DNA from: Escherichia phage vB-Eco-KMB43
Sequence record: OR525698.1
Direction: 5' to 3' (one strand)
DNA length: 64,000 nt
Made by a program: the position numbers and the translations under genes. Under the pieces are notes generated by a model that worked only from the letters and a program-made list of their open reading frames with translations, had not been told where the DNA came from and ran no database searches. This document shows, piece after piece, positions 51,874 through 64,000 of this stretch; the first letter of the stretch is position 1, and each line of letters starts with the position of its first letter.

Positions 51874-52209
51874 TTATCCTTTCTTAAACAAATTGCGAAT
51901 CCAGTATACAAACGGGATTTCTTTAAACTTGAACTTGTCAATAGTTAATTCTTTAGTAGCAAGATGAATACCATAAGCATCATGTGTAACTATATGCCAT
52001 TTTCTATAGTCCAAATGTGAACAACCGTCTGGATCTAGGTTAATAAGAGTTTCTCTCTCACTAGGATTATTTTTCCACAATTTTGTAATAGGATCGCACA
52101 TAATTCGACCTAGCGTACCATGAATAATCTCACAACGGTAAAGTTTTCCAGCAGTGAGATAGGCGCACCCGTCATAGTCGGTATAAACAAACACTTCTTT
52201 AACACTCAT
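51874..52209 (-). CDS. paralog family C member (about 111 aa)
   Basis: DPDGCSHLDYRKWHIV shared with 52270-52706; ATG at 52209 after promoter-hairpin cassette. Confidence 0.4.
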   Translation of the reverse strand: MSVKEVFVYTDYDGCAYLTAGKLYRCEIIHGTLGRIMCDPITKLWKNNPSERETLINLDPDGCSHLDYRKWHIVTHDAYGIHLATKELTIDKFKFKEIPFVYWIRNLFKKG

Positions 52210-52240
52210 TTTAATACTCCTTTGTTGTTTCGATGGGGGT

Positions 52241-52269
52241 ATATTACTACCCCCGATCATGTGTGTCAA
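52241..52269 (-). promoter_or_regulatory. promoter-hairpin cassette (TTGACA; TAATAT in loop of GGGGGTA/TACCCCC stem)
   Basis: same architecture as family at 60748-60776. Confidence 0.45.
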
Positions 52270-52530
52270 CTACTTTTTCAAGATTTTTTTGATTGCATTC
52301 CAAAGACCTTTATTTCCAGGTTGTTTTGGTTCTTCGATCAGTGTCCATGTTCGACCGTCTAAGTGTGCACAATTTTTAAGACAAATAAAAATCTGGTGTC
52401 CCTTATCATCACGGATATAACCACTATTCGCAAATCTTTCATGTGGTGTATATTCATACAGTGTATTAGGTGTAATATACTTGCGGTTACTATAAGGTGT
52501 CATCACATACATCATGGTACTAACTCCCAA
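52270..52530 (-). CDS. paralog family C member (86 aa)
   Basis: YEYTP...GYIRDDKGHQIFICLKNCAHLDGRTWTL. Confidence 0.4.
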   Translation of the reverse strand: MGVSTMMYVMTPYSNRKYITPNTLYEYTPHERFANSGYIRDDKGHQIFICLKNCAHLDGRTWTLIEEPKQPGNKGLWNAIKKILKK

Positions 52531-52706
52531 TTATCACCGCGAAGATGAGAACATCCACCATCAAGAAGGATCGTAATACGATAACCTATATCATCTTTGA
52601 TGTAACCGATTGTCGGTGGATTTTCGTAGTCTCGTGTCGGGGTAAAATCATACATCTTTCCTGGCGTAATATCTTGTCCTTTATTGCTATTGGTATAAAC
52701 TTTCAT
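52512..52706 (-). CDS. paralog family C member (64 aa)
   Basis: YDFTP...GYIKDDIGYRITILLDGGCSHLRGDNWEL. Confidence 0.4.
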   Translation of the reverse strand: MKVYTNSNKGQDITPGKMYDFTPTRDYENPPTIGYIKDDIGYRITILLDGGCSHLRGDNWELVP

Positions 52707-52727: not shown

Positions 52728-53426
52728 CTAACCACGGGTATAGTGTTCCAGAACAACTGTCAGATGAATATATTCTAATAAATCTTTCCAAAAGTCAACA
52801 TCTGGTTCTTCCGGCATACCGTTTTTCTTTGCCTCTTCACGAGCGAGTTTAACACGCTCGTAGAGATCTTTCAATTCTTCCCGCACATTATCAAAGGTTC
52901 TTTCTCCTAACTTACACGCTAAAATAGAAGAACGTCGCGCGAGCGGGAATTGTAGATCACCTGTCTGATAGATTTCAAGTAGCTGATAACCAACACGCAG
53001 AGCATGAGAAAGATCTTTCCAGTTACTGAAATACTTTTCAGATTTGGCTACCTGCTTTTTGAGATAGCCAGACAAACCCCACATACCAACATGATAGAAT
53101 TTATCTCGATGTGTTCGGATGTATTCCCATTCTCTGGAGGATTCAATCAACATGTTACTAGGAGCGTGCACCATGTCAATAGCGCCGATATCGCCTTTAC
53201 ATGCCAGATTGATAAACCGTTTTAGACTGAACATATTAACATCAATATCGTCTTTGGTGTTCTTGATACCTTGACCGCTAGTGCTTTGGTCATAGTGTTC
53301 TTTCATCGATCCTAAGATAATTTCTTTCGCAGTCGGAACAAAGATACCACGATAATCTTTATCGGAATTTTCAGTATCAAGGCCGTATAAGTGAGATCCG
53401 AAGACCATTTTAACCATTGTATGCAT
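52728..53426 (-). CDS. polymerase-beta superfamily nucleotidyltransferase (232 aa)
   Basis: N-terminal FGSHLYGLDTENSDKDYRGIF fits the GS-x(9-13)-DxD minimal NTase signature. Confidence 0.55.
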   Translation of the reverse strand: MHTMVKMVFGSHLYGLDTENSDKDYRGIFVPTAKEIILGSMKEHYDQSTSGQGIKNTKDDIDVNMFSLKRFINLACKGDIGAIDMVHAPSNMLIESSREWEYIRTHRDKFYHVGMWGLSGYLKKQVAKSEKYFSNWKDLSHALRVGYQLLEIYQTGDLQFPLARRSSILACKLGERTFDNVREELKDLYERVKLAREEAKKNGMPEEPDVDFWKDLLEYIHLTVVLEHYTRG

Positions 53427-53512: not shown

Positions 53513-53929
53513 TTAGAGAGATTCGGTAAAGGTACGAGCGATAACATCACGTTGCTGGTCTGGAGTCAGACTATTGAAGCGCACTGCGTAACCAGAAACG
53601 CGAATTGTAAGCTGCGGGTACTTCTCAGGATGTTCAACAGCGTCCAGCAACATTTCTCGTAACAATACGTTAACATTCAAATGCTGACCACCTTCGACAA
53701 CCGGAGCACCATTATCTACAATCACCGGACGGAAGCTAGTTGTGTGCAGTGCCAGCGAATCGACGTCTTCTGCGGTGATCACATGGTCTTCTGCGAAAGT
53801 TTTACTAACAATTACTTTAGCGCCGATCAGTGCTTTCGGTTCGGATACCAGAATCATAGGCGCGAAGTGTCCACCAATAATAGTACCTTTATGTTCACCT
53901 TTCATGATTTGAATTGCTTTAAATTCCAT
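53513..53929 (-). CDS. grcA: autonomous glycyl radical cofactor, GrcA/YfiD-like
   Basis: C-terminal [11 protein letters not shown]...[39 protein letters not shown] is near-identical to E. coli YfiD. Confidence 0.85.
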
Positions 53930-54618: not shown

Positions 54619-55194
54619 TTATTTTGGATCTGGGAAATTCAATAGAGCATATTCTCCATAAAATTTCCTAGCTGCATTATCATAAGCGATTGCAGCTTCG
54701 ATTTCTGTGTCATATTGTCCAAGAACATGTCTTTGTAGGTTGACCATTATACTAGCTCTCCATTTCTTACGCAAATCCTTCCTGTTACACTTACTAACAC
54801 CCTTATACACACTAGAAAACTTTTTAGACTTCTTCTTTCTATTATGTTGATTTTGCGCGTCGGTTGCCTCCCTAAGATTTGGAGGATTGTTATTAGCAGG
54901 ATTACCGTCAATATGATCAATTAATCTAACTTGCGTCCCATGTTCTAGAAACCAAACAACCCTATGCACGAATAAATGAACTCTAGGAAGACCGTCATCT
55001 CTACTATGCCAAAATCGAAGATGACCATCTTTATTTGTTCTGACTTTAACTAAATCGCCGTGTTTATATCTACTCCCTAATGGTCGTCCTTTGATAGCTT
55101 TACTATCGACTCTATAATATAAGATACCCTCTATATGAGCATATCTAAGTTTTATCTCGTTTTGTAGGGATTCATCCCAATATTTAAAAGCCAT
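54619..55194 (-). CDS. HNH homing endonuclease with AP2-like domain
   Basis: HRVVWFLEHG...IDHIDGNPANNNPPNLREAT HNH motif; YKGVS...GQYDTEIEAAIAYDNAARKFYG AP2-like module. Confidence 0.75.
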   Translation of the reverse strand: MAFKYWDESLQNEIKLRYAHIEGILYYRVDSKAIKGRPLGSRYKHGDLVKVRTNKDGHLRFWHSRDDGLPRVHLFVHRVVWFLEHGTQVRLIDHIDGNPANNNPPNLREATDAQNQHNRKKKSKKFSSVYKGVSKCNRKDLRKKWRASIMVNLQRHVLGQYDTEIEAAIAYDNAARKFYGEYALLNFPDPK

Positions 55195-57856: not shown

Positions 57857-58183
57857 TTAGAAAGAAACAGTTTTCAAGAAATCCAGATTTTTAGTACCGA
57901 AAACAGAAAAGTAGTGTTCTCCTTTTTCGGTTTTAGAGAAAGCGATTGTCTTCTCTACATGGTGACGGAAGCCAGACAGACGATCACCCAGGTCAAGGCG
58001 GCAAGCGTAAGTAGTGCCGTTTTCGAAAGTAACCTCGATTTGAGTTTTGTCATATTCGCTTTCATAGGCTTTTGCTGCTGCGTCCTGTGCTTTACGCTCG
58101 AAGTCTTCGAAGTGGAATACTTCGTTTGCGTTAGCGAATACAGAAGATTCAGAGAAGATAACTTTAACAGATACTGGTTTCAT
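57857..58183 (-). CDS. hypothetical protein (108 aa)
   Basis: ORF with AGGAGTATCAAA RBS and promoter cassette. Confidence 0.4.
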   Translation of the reverse strand: MKPVSVKVIFSESSVFANANEVFHFEDFERKAQDAAAKAYESEYDKTQIEVTFENGTTYACRLDLGDRLSGFRHHVEKTIAFSKTEKGEHYFSVFGTKNLDFLKTVSF

Positions 58184-58225
58184 TTTGATACTCCTTAGTA
58201 GTTCGTGTTTCGTTTCGATGGGTGT

Positions 58226-58254
58226 ATTATGCTATACACCCTCTCTCGTGTCAA
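58226..58254 (-). promoter_or_regulatory. promoter-hairpin cassette (TTGACA, 17 nt, CATAAT in loop of GGGTGTAT/ATACACCC stem)
   Basis: perfect 8 bp stem 58220-58241. Confidence 0.5.
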
Positions 58255-58262
58255 CAACTTTT

Positions 58263-58451
58263 TTAGTCTTTTTTCATAATTTCTAGAGCTGTTTCTACAG
58301 CACCTTTCCAACCCTCCCACATAATGGACATAGTAAGGAAGTTAAAGCACCCGCAGGAATCAACCTTTTTAGAGATAAACCATTCTACAAACGCTTCGCT
58401 CATACCATGCTCTTTAGCGGATTCGCGTAATTGTTCAATTTGGTCTTCCAT
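58263..58451 (-). CDS. hypothetical protein (62 aa)
   Basis: small ORF. Confidence 0.3.
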   Translation of the reverse strand: MEDQIEQLRESAKEHGMSEAFVEWFISKKVDSCGCFNFLTMSIMWEGWKGAVETALEIMKKD

Positions 58452-58473
58452 AGTATCACCTCAACACTTAACG

Positions 58474-58668
58474 TTATTCAAACTCAAACGGTCTATTCAA
58501 CCTATTGTAAAAGTACATATAACAAGCAAAATTATGCTTTGGCTGTACCGTATCAGATAGACACGCTTTTACAGCCTCGCGGTCCGATGGGTCTACACCC
58601 TCAGCTTTAAGTAATGCTAAAATCTGGTTATAGCGTACTCTTAGTTGTACTAATGGTTTATCCCCCAT
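58474..58668 (-). CDS. hypothetical protein (64 aa)
   Basis: small ORF. Confidence 0.3.
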   Translation of the reverse strand: MGDKPLVQLRVRYNQILALLKAEGVDPSDREAVKACLSDTVQPKHNFACYMYFYNRLNRPFEFE

Positions 58669-58677
58669 ATTACCCCC

Positions 58678-58905
58678 TTATAGTTGATCAGCAATGTATG
58701 CGGTGCATTTGCGGAGTTTAGCCATAGCACCACCTTTCATGTCGCTTGCGCCTACAATGTTCATGATCTCTAAGCGATCAGCCGGATTCAGTCTAGTAGC
58801 CCAGATCTGGTTAGCCAGTTCCATTTTACCCATCTGCGGTTCCATCTCAAACATTTCACGCTCAAAGTCGATAATTTCTTTTGCTGCGTCTTTAAAGTTA
58901 ATCAT
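58678..58905 (-). CDS. hypothetical protein (75 aa)
   Basis: small ORF. Confidence 0.3.
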   Translation of the reverse strand: MINFKDAAKEIIDFEREMFEMEPQMGKMELANQIWATRLNPADRLEIMNIVGASDMKGGAMAKLRKCTAYIADQL

Positions 58906-58971
58906 TTTGGTCCTCCCGTTTCGTTGATGGTTGTATTGTAGGGGAGTTATCCTCCCATGTCAACACTTTTA

Positions 58972-59157
58972 TCAGAAATATGCAATATAGTTTGCCAGTC
59001 CTACAGAGTCATCATTCGGCATTGCTTTTACCGCCAGTTCAAACCCTGCTTCAACTTTCTGTTTAGCGGATTCTTCGTTATAACCCCAGATGACCAGAAT
59101 AGCTACTACGTTTTCTTTGCTTACTGCTTTCAGTGCTTTAGTGATGCGACGTGCCAT
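58972..59157 (-). CDS. hypothetical protein (61 aa)
   Basis: small ORF with promoter cassette upstream. Confidence 0.3.
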   Translation of the reverse strand: MARRITKALKAVSKENVVAILVIWGYNEESAKQKVEAGFELAVKAMPNDDSVGLANYIAYF

Positions 59158-59203
59158 AATTTGATTCTCCGTTTAAGAAAGCGTGTTTCGTTTCGATGGG
59201 TGT

Positions 59204-59232
59204 ATTATGCTATAGGCGTGATCTGGTGTCAA
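59204..59232 (-). promoter_or_regulatory. early promoter (TTGACA, 17 nt, CATAAT)
   Basis: downstream of terminator 59254-59286. Confidence 0.5.
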
Positions 59233-59253
59233 CAACTTTTTTAAAAAAATTTT

Positions 59254-59286
59254 AGGCAATAAAAAAGCCACTCCGAAGAGTGGCTT
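59254..59286 (-). terminator. rho-independent terminator closing the ORF-free stretch 59287-59434
   Basis: GCCACTC-TTCG-GAGTGGC hairpin then TTTTTTATT. Confidence 0.6.
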
Positions 59287-59434
59287 ATAGGGAAGGTAGC
59301 GAATCTTCCTTGTCTCCAACCTGCTAGCGGCCTAGCAAGTGAATGCTTTAGCGTACCGGATCACCCCATACGCTGTAATAAATGCGGCTAGGTGACGTCC
59401 AAATCATTCTAACCGCGCTGTCTTTAGTTCACTA

Positions 59435-59653
59435 TTATTTATATCGCTTTCTCTCGCGACGTTTTTGATCTTCTTCCTTGATAGAGTTAAACGCATCAAA
59501 AAGACACATGACACTGATAATGAACATAACCGTATTTTCTACGATATCCCACGGCTTCGCATCAGTACAGATCCCCCAAACGGTAAGAAATGCAAATAGT
59601 GCAGAAGAGATCACAAGCATGATACTTGCTAAGATATAAAAAGTCATTTTCAT
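59435..59653 (-). CDS. small membrane protein (72 aa)
   Basis: two TM helices, basic C-terminus. Confidence 0.3.
   Translation of the reverse strand: MKMTFYILASIMLVISSALFAFLTVWGICTDAKPWDIVENTVMFIISVMCLFDAFNSIKEEDQKRRERKRYK
59436..59443 (-). promoter_or_regulatory. T4-type late promoter motif TATAAATA facing an ORF-free stretch
   Basis: overlaps stop codon of ORF 59435-59653. Confidence 0.35.
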
Positions 59654-59844
59654 GGTTTTACCTCAATTCTTCGATATTCATCACACATCCACGCAGTAAG
59701 CAAGAATCCCAGCACATAAGCAACAAAATACGTTAATGCTTCTTCTGGTTCGGTGCTATGCGCCATCATCAGACCAGCGAGAAAGGTCTTAACAATTACA
59801 TTTAAAATAATTAGCCACGCAAATAATTTCATCGTTTGCCCCAT
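59650..59844 (-). CDS. small membrane protein (64 aa)
   Basis: two TM helices. Confidence 0.3.
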   Translation of the reverse strand: MGQTMKLFAWLIILNVIVKTFLAGLMMAHSTEPEEALTYFVAYVLGFLLTAWMCDEYRRIEVKP

Positions 59845-60068
59845 TTCGGTCGAGTCTTTTCAAACTTATACATCCCGTAACAATCTCGAATCATCCACGT
59901 AACAAGAGCACCAGTCAACACAGACAATACACAGAAGAAGTAAAACGGTCCGGTTGCATTATCAACATGAGCAAGCCAGGTAAAGAAAACACATGCTAAG
60001 AATGTGAAGAACATCATAAAACACAAGAAAGCAAAATATTTTATGCTACTCATAGCGCCACCATACAA
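59829..60068 (-). CDS. small membrane protein (79 aa)
   Basis: two TM helices. Confidence 0.3.
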   Translation of the reverse strand: MYGGAMSSIKYFAFLCFMMFFTFLACVFFTWLAHVDNATGPFYFFCVLSVLTGALVTWMIRDCYGMYKFEKTRPKWGKR

Positions 60069-60156
60069 CAGATCATAAGAAAACCCAACGCAATAAGAAT
60101 TGCATCAAATTTAGTGAACTCCGGTCCACATATCAACATCATTCGTTCCTGTTCAT

Positions 60157-60399
60157 TCATAGATCACAGAGCCATCTTAAAGCACCACATAAAGCGAGCA
60201 GAATACTAGGTATAAACGAGATCAAAACAAGTTTGCAAAAATCATCTAAGGTAATACCGGAATAGATACCAACTGTAACAACACCGATCATCAGACACAG
60301 AAAGAAAACAAATGCAATCAGAAACAAAGTATTGCTAAACAGTTTAGTGATCATTAGACACCCCACGACGATCAATTTCAAAAACTTTTTTATCATCAA
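60157..60399 (-). CDS. small membrane protein (80 aa)
   Basis: two or three TM helices. Confidence 0.3.
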   Translation of the reverse strand: MMIKKFLKLIVVGCLMITKLFSNTLFLIAFVFFLCLMIGVVTVGIYSGITLDDFCKLVLISFIPSILLALCGALRWLCDL

Positions 60400-60547
60400 C
60401 GAAGCATGTCACAACTGCCTCGTTGACTTCCGCAAATTGTTGTGTTACCCACTTAAGGTCAGAGCGAAACAATGTTCTATTAATAACAAATGTTTTACCT
60501 TTCTTATCCATACCCATAAATTTTGCTTTAACCATATCCAATTCCAT
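60344..60547 (-). CDS. hypothetical protein (67 aa)
   Basis: small ORF. Confidence 0.3.
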   Translation of the reverse strand: MELDMVKAKFMGMDKKGKTFVINRTLFRSDLKWVTQQFAEVNEAVVTCFVDDKKVFEIDRRGVSNDH

Positions 60548-60553
60548 ATTATC

Positions 60554-60715
60554 ACCTTATTTGCTAATCGCTAAACCCAATCCGAAGAGAGCACCCGATG
60601 CTACAGTATACCCGAAAGTTTCAAAGGCAGTAAAGATATCTAAGCCGCCAGCTAACAGAGTTGCAGTAAACAGAGTACCAGCTACGAACATAAAAGTTTT
60701 ACCGATAAATTTCAT
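60554..60715 (-). CDS. small membrane protein (53 aa, below ORF-track cutoff)
   Basis: hand-translated MKFIGKTFMFVAGTLFTATLLAGGLDIF...; AGGAGAATCAAA RBS. Confidence 0.3.
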
Positions 60716-60747
60716 TTTGATTCTCCTTTCGTTTGTTTGTGGGGGGT

Positions 60748-60776
60748 ATCTTACTACCCCCGTTTCATGTTGTCAA
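60748..60776 (-). promoter_or_regulatory. promoter-hairpin cassette (TTGACA; TAAGAT in loop of GGGGGTA/TACCCCC stem)
   Basis: same architecture. Confidence 0.45.
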
Positions 60777-60782
60777 CTGTTT

Positions 60783-61157
60783 TTAAGAAAATTTTACTTC
60801 GTCTACAATGTCTTTCATGACATTGATTTCCATTCCGGTCAGAACACGTTGGAACATGTGCTGCACATACGCTTTCAGGTATTCATTTGATGGCTTGCTA
60901 TCGAAAGTCTTTTTAGTGTAGTAGTCATCACCGAAAGCTACTGTAATTACATTTTCGTCGTCGTTCCAAGCGATATAAGCAAATTTGCCGTTATCCCAGA
61001 AGCGAGCACTAATTGCTACTTTTGTTGAATCGAATCCTACTTCGCTGTGAGATTCAAGAACTACTTGCGTGCCAGTTTCTTTATGAATGTAGTAGCGGGA
61101 TACTAAGTCAAAGTTACGGGTGTAGTGACATTCGAATTTATCTTTAAACATCATCAT
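60783..61157 (-). CDS. hypothetical protein (124 aa)
   Basis: ORF with GGAGAATCAAAAA RBS, promoter and terminator cassette upstream. Confidence 0.4.
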   Translation of the reverse strand: MMMFKDKFECHYTRNFDLVSRYYIHKETGTQVVLESHSEVGFDSTKVAISARFWDNGKFAYIAWNDDENVITVAFGDDYYTKKTFDSKPSNEYLKAYVQHMFQRVLTGMEINVMKDIVDEVKFS

Positions 61158-61195
61158 TTTTGATTCTCCTAAGTGTGTTTCGTTTCGATATGTGC

Positions 61196-61224
61196 ATTAT
61201 GCTATAGTCGTTTATGGTTGTCAA
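61196..61224 (-). promoter_or_regulatory. early promoter (TTGACA, 17 nt, CATAAT)
   Basis: downstream of terminator 61228-61262. Confidence 0.5.
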
Positions 61225-61227
61225 CAC

Positions 61228-61262
61228 CTAAAAACAAAAAACCCCGAAAAATTTTTCGGGGT
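61228..61262 (-). terminator. rho-independent terminator after 57B-like gene
   Basis: perfect palindrome CCCCGAAAAATTTTTCGGGG then TTTTTTGTTTTT. Confidence 0.6.
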
Positions 61263-61268
61263 ATAGAA

Positions 61269-61733
61269 TTACAGTTTGGTCGTCCACTCCAGGTCTAGAT
61301 CTTCGACATACTCATGAGATCGGACAATCTCTAAATCGAACTCAAGGTCAGTGCCAAATTTACGCGCACCAACATCATAAGAAAGCGTGATATGCGGTAC
61401 ATATTCAGGATAATCCCACGTCGCACCTAAAGCAGTGCCGATATCGTGTCTGAATTGCATGTAGTCGCTTTCAAATGCCAGCACAAGCGCATTAGTACCG
61501 GATTGAGTTTCAAACACTTTCAGATGGCATAGAGAGCCTAAGAACTTCTCCCCTTCTTCTGGGATAAACGGAACATAGACACGAGAATATAAGATAGTGC
61601 TATGCAGTTTATCACGAGGAACGGCATTAGGCAGATCGTAGAACTCCTGCAATTTTTCAATGCGGTCTAGTGTATCCTCAGTGAATTTAACCGCCGCATA
61701 TGTACCTTTAACGGATTCTCTAAACGGGGTCAT
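61269..61733 (-). CDS. 57B: 2H-phosphoesterase family protein, Acb1-like (T4 57B position)
   Basis: two H-x-T/S-x motifs (HSTILYS, HITLSYD); immediately upstream of 57A and gene 1; ATG at 61733. Confidence 0.6.
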   Translation of the reverse strand: MTPFRESVKGTYAAVKFTEDTLDRIEKLQEFYDLPNAVPRDKLHSTILYSRVYVPFIPEEGEKFLGSLCHLKVFETQSGTNALVLAFESDYMQFRHDIGTALGATWDYPEYVPHITLSYDVGARKFGTDLEFDLEIVRSHEYVEDLDLEWTTKL

Positions 61734-61735
61734 AA

Positions 61736-61996
61736 TCAAGCCTCCGTGATCAGTTCTACTTCCTCTTCTGCTTCTTCTGCGGCTTCGTCTTTAGGGAGAA
61801 GTGCTTTCACTTCTTCGACGATAGCATCAAGGGAAACAGTCCCGTTTTCGTCTGGCTGAATACCCAGAATGCGTACCAGTTCCATCAATACACGCTCACG
61901 ATCTTTCAGTTGGCCTTCTAAGAATGCGGCCTTTTCTTGAGTGTCAAACAGACGTACTTTCAGGACATTAATCATTTGTTCATGCTGATTGGACAT
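61736..61996 (-). CDS. 57A: tail fiber assembly chaperone gp57A-like
   Basis: about 86 aa acidic helical protein between 57B-like gene and gene 1; ATG at 61996 (track start is GTG). Confidence 0.6.
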   Translation of the reverse strand: MSNQHEQMINVLKVRLFDTQEKAAFLEGQLKDRERVLMELVRILGIQPDENGTVSLDAIVEEVKALLPKDEAAEEAEEEVELITEA

Positions 61997-62028
61997 ATTC
62001 ACATCTCCTACTTGTTGATAACTTTTTA

Positions 62029-62685
62029 TTAAATGTTCGCGAGAATCGCGCTTTCAAATTCTTCTAATGTACCATTATTTATGATAATGGTTTCACTGTC
62101 AATAGGCAAAATTCCTTTTTCGGTGGAGTGAGTCGATACAATACCAGTATCACGCTGAATATGCAACACCTTAGCACCCATAGCACGCACGAGAGCAATT
62201 TCAATAGGCTGACGCACATCAACCACTACAAAATAACCTTCTTCATTTTTGCGCTTCATAAACTCATTAACGAAGAGATTACACCAATAAAGCGGATTGA
62301 TCAAGTTAACCATTATATCAGTACCGAGAGTGGTTAACATGAGACGAATAGACCAGACGTTATTATGTTTTTCGCCAATCTCATTAACGACCTTGTAAAT
62401 CTCAGCCAGACGATCACAAGTAAAGGAACTACCTCCATACTTCGAATCTAGCATAAGCAGACACTGAATAAACCACTTATGCGCGGTATAGGTATCAATA
62501 CCTAGATCGGATTCTCTGTCACGCCCTAACCCGTCAAAGTCAAGATAAGTCAGACCTAAGTCTGGTTGACATTCGCACAATATTTCTTTGATCGGTGCTG
62601 CCAGTTGATAACTATGTCCATCAATGATTAACGCGGCAGTGTCTTTTCCTACTCGCTTTTTACCACAAAGTGCAATCAATTTCAT
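62029..62685 (-). CDS. 1: deoxynucleoside monophosphate kinase
   Basis: MKLIALCGKKRVGKDT P-loop and LGTD...RQ..E...RAMGA align with T4 gp1. Confidence 0.8.
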   Translation of the reverse strand: MKLIALCGKKRVGKDTAALIIDGHSYQLAAPIKEILCECQPDLGLTYLDFDGLGRDRESDLGIDTYTAHKWFIQCLLMLDSKYGGSSFTCDRLAEIYKVVNEIGEKHNNVWSIRLMLTTLGTDIMVNLINPLYWCNLFVNEFMKRKNEEGYFVVVDVRQPIEIALVRAMGAKVLHIQRDTGIVSTHSTEKGILPIDSETIIINNGTLEEFESAILANI

Positions 62686-62700
62686 TATATAAGCCTCTTA

Positions 62701-63291
62701 TTACTTTCTAAAAGCAGGGTGCATAGCTTTAATACCTTCCACCCGCTGACGATCCGCCGCCTGAATTGCTGGGCGAGGAACGATCAGTTGACCATCACGT
62801 TCAATGCTCATTGTTTTAAAGGGAAGAATTGCAGTACACACCAGAGATTCATGCATATCATCGGTGTATGTTAACTCAAGTTCCCCCAATTGTGAACACC
62901 AACAACCATAAAAGTTAAAAGTGCACACAATGTTACGTCGTTCGTTGTCCATCATGTGAACTTGAACGGCTTCCGGCATTGAATCCTTCCACGCAGTGGA
63001 GTTACCGTTATTGTAGTCTACTATAGAAAGCATCCATGTGTAAAGGTTTAGATAACTTTCCAAATGCTCATCGACAATAAACCGGACTACCAACGGGTCA
63101 AACTCCACATGACTAGAAGGATAATCAGCAACCGCCAAACCATATTGACCAGCAACTTGCTTAGTCGGTGGAATGGTTATAGCCGGAAGTGTAACACCTT
63201 GAGCATTTAAAGTAAAGCCTTTTGTTAGTTGTCCATCTGGAATATTGATCTGCCAGTTGCTGGGGTTAGCATAGTTAAAGAGATTGGACAT
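62701..63291 (-). CDS. probable tail completion protein (gp3-like late gene)
   Basis: 196 aa ORF following gene 1 as gene 3 does in T4; TAATAAATA late-promoter-like motif 22 nt upstream. Confidence 0.4.
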   Translation of the reverse strand: MSNLFNYANPSNWQINIPDGQLTKGFTLNAQGVTLPAITIPPTKQVAGQYGLAVADYPSSHVEFDPLVVRFIVDEHLESYLNLYTWMLSIVDYNNGNSTAWKDSMPEAVQVHMMDNERRNIVCTFNFYGCWCSQLGELELTYTDDMHESLVCTAILPFKTMSIERDGQLIVPRPAIQAADRQRVEGIKAMHPAFRK

Positions 63292-63312
63292 TTTCGATTC
63301 CTCAAATGAAAA

Positions 63313-63321
63313 TATTTATTA
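63313..63321 (-). promoter_or_regulatory. late-promoter-like motif TAATAAATA upstream of gp3-like gene
   Basis: 22 nt upstream of ATG at 63291. Confidence 0.35.
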
Positions 63322-63445
63322 ACAATTGTCGCTTTGCGACGTGCCGGAGGCACTGACTACTTTTTAACCGAAACAAATTTCTATTATTCTAAAGATCTTT
63401 CTTCGTTTTGGTTATGTTTTAACCAATAACTATATTTTTATACAG

Positions 63446-63454
63446 TAATAAATA
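63446..63454 (+). promoter_or_regulatory. late-promoter-like motif TAATAAATA upstream of plus-strand ORF
   Basis: 26 nt upstream of ATG at 63481. Confidence 0.3.
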
Positions 63455-63480
63455 AAACGGGTACTATACGAGGACTTCTT

Positions 63481-63735
63481 ATGACAGAAGACATTTTGTT
63501 AAAACTCTATGATCGTTTGGATAACGAATTAGCAACATTGCGGGGTGAAGTTCTCTATTTGTCTAAATGCAATACAGATCTGCTTAAGCAGATTGCAGAA
63601 AGGGATGATCAAATAAAATCCCTTTCAGGTGCATTACGTGATCGCGACAAGGCATTAGAGATTTTACAGCGTGTTACCAATAAGGAAGAATTAAAAGACT
63701 TCTTACATGGTTATGCTCATGCTATCGATCTATAA
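63481..63735 (+). CDS. hypothetical coiled-coil protein (84 aa)
   Basis: only plausible plus-strand gene; GAGGA RBS, late-promoter-like TAATAAATA upstream, hairpin downstream. Confidence 0.45.
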   Translation: MTEDILLKLYDRLDNELATLRGEVLYLSKCNTDLLKQIAERDDQIKSLSGALRDRDKALEILQRVTNKEELKDFLHGYAHAIDL

Positions 63736-63740
63736 TAAAA

Positions 63741-63772
63741 AAAAGCCCGTCAATGACGGGCTTAATGTTATG
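63741..63772. terminator. bidirectional terminator hairpin
   Basis: GCCCGTC-AAT-GACGGGC flanked by an A-run on plus (T-run on minus) and TTAATGTT. Confidence 0.5.
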
Positions 63773-63983
63773 CATCCTTCCAAACTTTCCTTGCGTCGTA
63801 TTTCTTGCCTTTTGACATAAACTGATATGTCGGCATATAGATAATATTGCTCCAGTCTTTCGGGCTAATCTCAACAAGTTTTGTTTTAATGTGTCCCGGT
63901 AGATATGCTTTGATCATGTGGTCACTACCACGCATACCTTTTACATCGCTCCATTTGATTTTTAAGCGTGTTTTATTGCTCAA
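63768..63983 (-). CDS. hypothetical protein (71 aa)
   Basis: ORF followed by strong hairpin plus T-run. Confidence 0.35.
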
Positions 63984-64000
63984 GGTAGGAGTAGATGCAT

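Follow-up and report, generated by a model that had tools for sequence, protein, structure and literature searches.

The minus-strand open reading frame at 61269..61733 of Escherichia phage vB-Eco-KMB43 (OR525698.1) is the Krischvirus (RB49-type) ortholog of the anti-CBASS nuclease Acb1, encoded by gene 57B of T4, and thus a compact 2H phosphoesterase; we put the probability of this reading at about 0.9. The assignment draws on family membership, predicted fold, conservation of the functional residues, synteny and purifying selection. By homology with the characterised enzymes, the protein most likely cleaves the cyclic di- and trinucleotides that serve as CBASS signals, 3' of adenosine and without metal. 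The gene itself is ordinary: its family is characterised, its phage genus is well sampled, and databases already name it. All positions given below are those of the window, i.e. the whole 64-kb stretch that was analysed out of a genome of roughly 165 kb, and the coordinates of the individual features are collected in Table 1.

Results

The acb1 reading frame and its signals

On the minus strand, acb1 starts with an ATG at 61733 and ends with a TAA at 61269-61271. A mechanical list of reading frames also held a 156-aa version with a TTG start at 61739, which overlaps the TGA of the preceding gene, 57A. We prefer the ATG because GGAGG is found 7 nt upstream of it, and because the same 465-nt coding sequence is present in Krischvirus records. 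The preliminary description of this DNA had placed a 154-aa ORF here and had pointed to the motifs HSTILYS and HITLSYD within it; the frame proved correct, and both motifs are present, at residues 44-50 and 114-120. The stop codon of 57A (61736-61738) lies 2 nt ahead of the acb1 ATG, and the two genes are therefore tightly packed.

Downstream, a terminator scan predicted a strong intrinsic terminator that begins 7 nt past the acb1 stop codon, with five G-C pairs in its stem followed by a T-run. A terminator is annotated at the matching place in the Krischvirus records GEC-3S, Makalu_002 and G2494. Just past it, a promoter scan returned a sigma-70-like match for the next gene.

Table 1. Coordinates of acb1, its sequence signals and other features of the window.
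Feature	Position	Strand	Basis or remark
acb1 (57B ortholog) CDS	61269..61733	-	154 aa + TAA stop; ORF list, Pfam, PDB, T4 comparison
Shine-Dalgarno GGAGG	61741..61745	-	7 nt 5' of acb1 ATG, within final 57A codons; read from sequence
First 2H motif HSTILYS, aa 44-50 (H44-x-T46, S50)	61584..61604	-	equals T4 H44/T46
Second 2H motif HITLSYD, aa 114-120 (H114-x-T116)	61374..61394	-	equals T4 H113/T115
E144 codon	61302..61304	-	equals T4 E141, adenine-N6 contact; T4 alignment; role from PMC9117128
C-terminal lid, aa 148-154 LEWTTKL, incl. W150 (= T4 W147)	61272..61292	-	alignment; lid per PMC9117128
Intrinsic terminator, 9-bp stem ACCCCGAAA/TTTCGGGGT then TTTTTTGTTTT	61231..61262	-	terminator scan
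Sigma-70-like promoter match for next gene	61224..61196		promoter scan
57A tail-fibre chaperone	61736..61996	-	Pfam GP57 E=2.3e-6; PHROG 1002 E=4.5e-26; GEC-3S annotation
Gene 1 (dNMP kinase) homolog	62029..62685	-	ORF; annotated so in Krischvirus records
Sigma-70-like promoter TTGACA-17-AATAAT	62074..62102	-	within gene 1 end, 5' of 57A/acb1; 11/12, consensus match only
Gene 3 (tail completion/sheath stabiliser) homolog	62701..63291	-	Pfam Phage_T4_gp19 E=1.9e-7; GEC-3S annotation
84-aa ORF	63481..63735	+	PHROG 17832, function-unknown; bidirectional terminator directly after it annotated in GEC-3S
124-aa protein	60783..61157	-	PHROG 15253, function-unknown, Krischvirus-specific; sub-threshold Pfam Gp30.7 E=0.004
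52-aa hydrophobic ORF	60557..60715	-	
Dmd homolog (antitoxin against RnlA/LsoA)	60344..60547	-	Pfam Dmd E=8.7e-16, PHROG 2102
Four to five successive small ORFs, 36-80 aa	59435..60399	-	strongly hydrophobic; each its own function-unknown PHROG
191-aa ORF	54619..55194	-	HNH_3 E=2.6e-10; sub-threshold AP2 match
GrcA-like glycyl-radical protein	53513..53929		
232-aa ORF	52728..53426	-	Pfam RlaP E=3.4e-14 (RNA repair pathway DNA polymerase beta family nucleotidyltransferase)
Three adjacent ORFs (131, 86, 64 aa)	51874..52706	-	beside regB homolog; shared motif ending C-x-HLD...W

Family assignment

The Pfam profile of Acb1 (PF23474) matched the protein over profile positions 1-143 of 144, scoring 174.4 bits where 27 is the cutoff (E=1.5e-51), which is well past chance. 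When the sequence was compared with solved structures, solely Acb1 of Erwinia phage FBB1 was recovered (7T26/7T27; E=1.8e-43, chain residues 2-143). In a database search, 64 of 64 homologs carried PF23474, while NCBIfam returned no match to the 154-aa protein. An alignment with T4 Acb1, which the preliminary description had proposed as a check, extends over the whole length and thus beyond the HxT motifs, at 47% identity (E=3e-47). The earlier reading of an Acb1-like 2H phosphoesterase is therefore supported by full-length similarity to the Pfam family, to FBB1 and to T4, as well as by the predicted fold described below.

That this would be a known class had been guessed rightly: the exact 154-aa sequence is that of RB49 gp57B (AAQ15381.1), occurs on 316 contigs and already carries the UniRef label 'Anti-CBASS protein Acb1 n=16 Tax=Krischvirus RepID=Q7Y455_BPRB4'. 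GenBank and RefSeq records name it 'hypothetical protein', 'gp57B conserved hypothetical protein' or 'RNA ligase'.

Predicted structure and functional residues

An AlphaFold2 model built on a 62-sequence alignment reached a pLDDT of 91.6 and a pTM of 0.84, and is poorly defined only in the first five and last four residues; low model confidence at the C-terminal end is as expected of a flexible lid. The best PDB matches to this model in Foldseek were 7T26 (TMt 0.97, rmsd 0.9 Å, 52% identity) and then 7T27, which are the apo form and the 3'3'-cGAMP complex of FBB1 Acb1 respectively. As in these two structures, the predicted fold is that of a compact 2H phosphoesterase with a central beta-sheet pocket. 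The next structural match was the phosphodiesterase of Burkholderia phage BCSR5 (9Q2Y/9Q2G), at a TM of about 0.7.

According to Hobbs et al. (2022; PMC9117128), Acb1 relies on an HxT/HxT catalytic tetrad, on base stacking by four aromatic side chains, on a glutamate in contact with adenine N6, and on a C-terminal lid. In our alignments with T4 and with the family, all nine residues to which that paper gives catalytic or substrate-binding roles are kept or conservatively replaced. The T4 tetrad H44, T46, H113 and T115 corresponds to H44, T46, H114 and T116; the stacking residues Y12, W74, F107 and W147, the last of which belongs to the lid, correspond to Y12, F74, Y108 and W150; and the adenine-contacting E141 corresponds to E144. 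At the two substituted positions, F74 and Y108 are the very residues found in the crystallised, active FBB1 Acb1. Seven residues (H44, T46, S50, H114, T116, L117 and Y119) are invariant across the 62-sequence alignment, and G10, Y12, R95, Y111, P113, E141, Y142, E144 and L146 reach a conservation of 90% or more in the alignments of 29 and 62 members. The sequence gives no sign that the Krischvirus protein has lost or changed its function.

Gene order around acb1

The genes 3, 1, 57A and acb1 form a co-directional run on the minus strand, with gene 3 first and acb1 last, in the order of 3-1-57A-57B in T4. The gene had been assigned beforehand to the T4 57B position, and this holds, since 57A, gene 1 and gene 3 lie upstream on the same strand as in T4. 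The late-promoter motif of T4, TATAAATA, is absent near the run and has only two sites in the whole window, fewer than expected by chance; visual inspection showed only variants matching in seven of eight positions, upstream of gene 3 and of 57A. A search of Rfam returned no RNA family within 58000-64000.

A homolog of Dmd lies about 0.7 kb downstream of acb1. In T4, acb1 adjoins an anti-restriction gene (Hobbs et al., 2022; PMC9117128), and with Dmd so close, the notion of an anti-defence neighbourhood would extend from T4 to this phage: the Dmd homolog, acb1 and the ORFs between them may constitute a small neighbourhood of this kind. The intervening 124-aa and 52-aa ORFs fill the slot of T4 ipI and, by virtue of this position, are candidate anti-defence genes; tblastn (E ≤ 0.01) found no homolog of T4 ipI in the window. 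The series of small hydrophobic ORFs at 59435..60399 probably encodes small membrane proteins.

We also searched the window for the second anti-CBASS factor of T4, Acb2 (vs.4), and found no homolog in these 64 kb (tblastn, E ≤ 0.01). The ORFs beside the regB homolog, i.e. in the slot of T4 vs.3/vs.4, carry no Acb2_Tad1_hairpin domain, for which T4 Vs.4 scores 7e-20. The 131-, 86- and 64-aa ORFs found there look like paralogs of one another and have no Pfam match. Elsewhere in the window, the 191-aa ORF looks like a free-standing homing endonuclease, and the RlaP-like ORF adjoins the GrcA-like protein.

Variation and selection among Krischvirus copies

The 5-kb stretch around acb1 is 98% identical to 58 phage records, and those that were checked for taxonomy (GEC-3S, G2494, Cognac, Makalu_002, TB34, Phi1 and ELT3) all belong to Krischvirus, the RB49-like coliphages. 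At least 55 phage records encode a protein that is 99-100% identical, while the DNA differs by 1-4%. Relative to five intact Krischvirus orthologs we counted 48 synonymous codon differences and a single non-synonymous one (D129N, in G2494); this excess argues that Krischvirus Acb1 is functional and constrained.

Two of the 58 Krischvirus records contain a frameshifted acb1. In Cognac (MZ504877.1; L003:369-832), deletion of 1 nt at nt 192 creates a stop after residue 64, and the gene is annotated as two ORFs of 64 and 82 aa; in TB34 (OX001802.1; L006:100-645), two insertions of 1 nt each are present. None of these indels falls within a homopolymer run. They may be assembly or sequencing errors or genuine losses, and the existence of such copies points to acb1 being unnecessary under at least some conditions. 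If the losses are genuine, they would parallel the nonsense mutation in acb1 of phage Bas43 and the mutants by which phages evade Panoptes (PMC12657230; PMC13577387). The product of MM02 gp156 has been called Acb1 (PMC12657230); the 58 Krischvirus matches include no MM02 record and no BASEL-style phage name, and MM02 is therefore not counted as evidence.

Discussion

Predicted activity of Krischvirus Acb1

For the Krischvirus protein, enzymatic activity, the list of substrates and an anti-CBASS effect in vivo are transferred from the Acb1 enzymes of T4 and FBB1. By homology, a U-shaped pocket would clamp the cyclic di- or trinucleotide between Y12, F74, Y108 and W150, with E144 reading the adenine N6 and the C-terminal lid shutting over the ligand. 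The H44/T46/H114/T116 tetrad would then catalyse, without metal, an attack on the 3'-5' phosphodiester by the adenosine 2'-OH, such that cleavage occurs 3' of adenosine and proceeds via a 2',3'-cyclic phosphate intermediate to a linear 3'-phosphate product. The expected substrates are 3'3'-cGAMP, cUA, cAA, cAAA and cAAG, with cGG and cA4 being spared, and cleavage of the signal would stop CBASS effector activation.

Full-text searches for Acb1 together with RB49 or Krischvirus returned no enzymatic or genetic test of this ortholog. All nine further Acb1 homologs assayed by Hobbs et al. (2022; PMC9117128) were able to cleave 3'3'-cGAMP and cAAA, and vB_EcoM-G2494, whose Acb1 differs from ours only by D129N, was among the 57 phages of the lysate screen in that paper. 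Protection against CBASS in vivo by acb1 has been shown for T4 only. As Krischvirus Acb1 is 47-55% identical to the characterised enzymes, its quantitative substrate preferences could differ.

Alternative readings

The name 'RNA ligase', by which PHROG 755 is described and which RefSeq uses for Krischvirus and T4 records, would suit a LigT-type enzyme of RNA repair or end-healing, either a 2'-5' RNA ligase or a 2',3'-cyclic phosphodiesterase, instead of an immune-signal nuclease. Weak Pfam matches to 2_5_RNA_ligase2 (E=0.0011) and LigT_PEase (E=0.057) point the same way, and E. coli LigT (5LDI) is among the structural matches. Both families remain below threshold, however (PF13563, 19.4 bits where 27 are required; PF02834, 14.1 where 23.3 are required), compared with 174 bits for Acb1, and LigT fits the model poorly, at a TM of about 0.5, an rmsd of 6-7 Å and 10-13% identity, where Acb1 reaches a TM of 0.97 at 0.9 Å. 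Since T4 57B, which bears the same label, was shown experimentally to be a cGAMP-degrading enzyme (Hobbs et al., 2022; PMC9117128), we regard 'RNA ligase' as a legacy superfamily annotation and rejected this reading as very improbable. Still less credible, to the point of being hardly worth entertaining, is a decaying or inactive relic that is held only by its place in the 57A operon. T4 acb1 is unneeded for growth in hosts that lack CBASS, and the copies in Cognac and TB34 are frameshifted, both of which such a relic would explain; yet the present gene combines an intact ORF and a strong ribosome binding site with a complete catalytic tetrad and every invariant position of the family, its codon differences are overwhelmingly synonymous (48 versus 1), and the protein is nearly uniform in at least 55 phage records despite the 1-4% difference in DNA.

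An active Acb1-fold enzyme might also have its main Krischvirus target outside CBASS, e.g. the cA3 of type III CRISPR or other cyclases, or act on a shifted set of substrates. The same reading includes the notion that Acb1 could be a liability in hosts with Panoptes-type guards, because these fire once decoy cyclic nucleotides vanish. T4 Acb1 breaks down cAAA and 2'3'-c-di-AMP and sets off Panoptes of both type I and type II, and phages escape Panoptes through inactivation of acb1 (PMC12657230; PMC13577387); the two frameshifted records among 58, and an identity of only 47-55% to the characterised enzymes, can be cited in its favour as well. However, retention or conservative replacement of all described contact residues gives no indication of a different specificity, the frameshifts could be sequencing errors, and a target of this kind would supplement an anti-CBASS role more than replace it, such that we judge this reading quite improbable. 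We also considered a joint proposal in which Acb1 would be the sole anti-CBASS factor of Krischvirus phages, its substrate spectrum or potency would differ from that of T4 Acb1, and the Cognac and TB34 frameshifts would reflect true losses that arose repeatedly under selection by Panoptes or similar guard systems, which are triggered when Acb1 removes decoys. Its first part is prompted by finding no Acb2 homolog in the 64-kb window, and its second by a clade that varies very little internally yet shares no more than 47-55% identity with the characterised enzymes; taken together, the proposal is speculative and we think it unlikely.

Significance

As a discovery this carries little weight, given that the Acb1 family of anti-CBASS proteins has been established since 2022 and that RB49 gp57B is already listed as Acb1 in UniRef. 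The assignment does correct the misleading names 'RNA ligase' and 'hypothetical protein' in most Krischvirus records of GenBank and RefSeq. It also predicts that RB49-like coliphages of therapeutic or model use would be resistant to CBASS signalling with adenine-containing molecules and sensitive to Panoptes-type guard systems. The frameshifted variants of Cognac and TB34, if real, could serve as natural controls.

Comparison with known systems

LigT and the 2'-5' RNA ligase-like 2H phosphoesterases (PF02834, PF13563) share the superfamily fold and two HxT/S motifs with the Krischvirus protein, but are larger, with about 170-185 aa as opposed to 154 aa. The BCSR5 phosphodiesterase, solved with open and closed lid, resembles it in being a phage 2H phosphodiesterase with a lid, whereas the two are only 16-18% identical and superimpose with an rmsd of 3-5 Å; a literature search for BCSR5 together with phosphodiesterase found no paper. 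FBB1 Acb1 is the top match among solved structures and, where two aromatic residues of the Krischvirus protein depart from T4, has the same F and Y. It comes from a phage of another lineage with a host of another genus, roughly half of its residues are different, and the loop past the second motif differs in length by two residues.

T4 Acb1 (57B, NP_049750.1), the founding anti-CBASS nuclease (Hobbs et al., 2022; PMC9117128), has 152 aa compared with 154 aa here. Relative to T4, the Krischvirus protein has one additional residue before the second motif and two in the 121-135 loop, and the W74-to-F74 and F107-to-Y108 replacements are both conservative. Downstream of acb1, T4 carries ipI, whereas the 124-aa Krischvirus-specific protein, the 52-aa ORF and then dmd follow here; the 84-aa plus-strand ORF separates genes 3 and 2, which are direct neighbours in T4. 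Both proteins have in common the HxT/HxT tetrad, the adenine-reading glutamate, the aromatic clamp and the C-terminal tryptophan lid, and both genes lie at the same genomic place, following gene 3, gene 1 and 57A.
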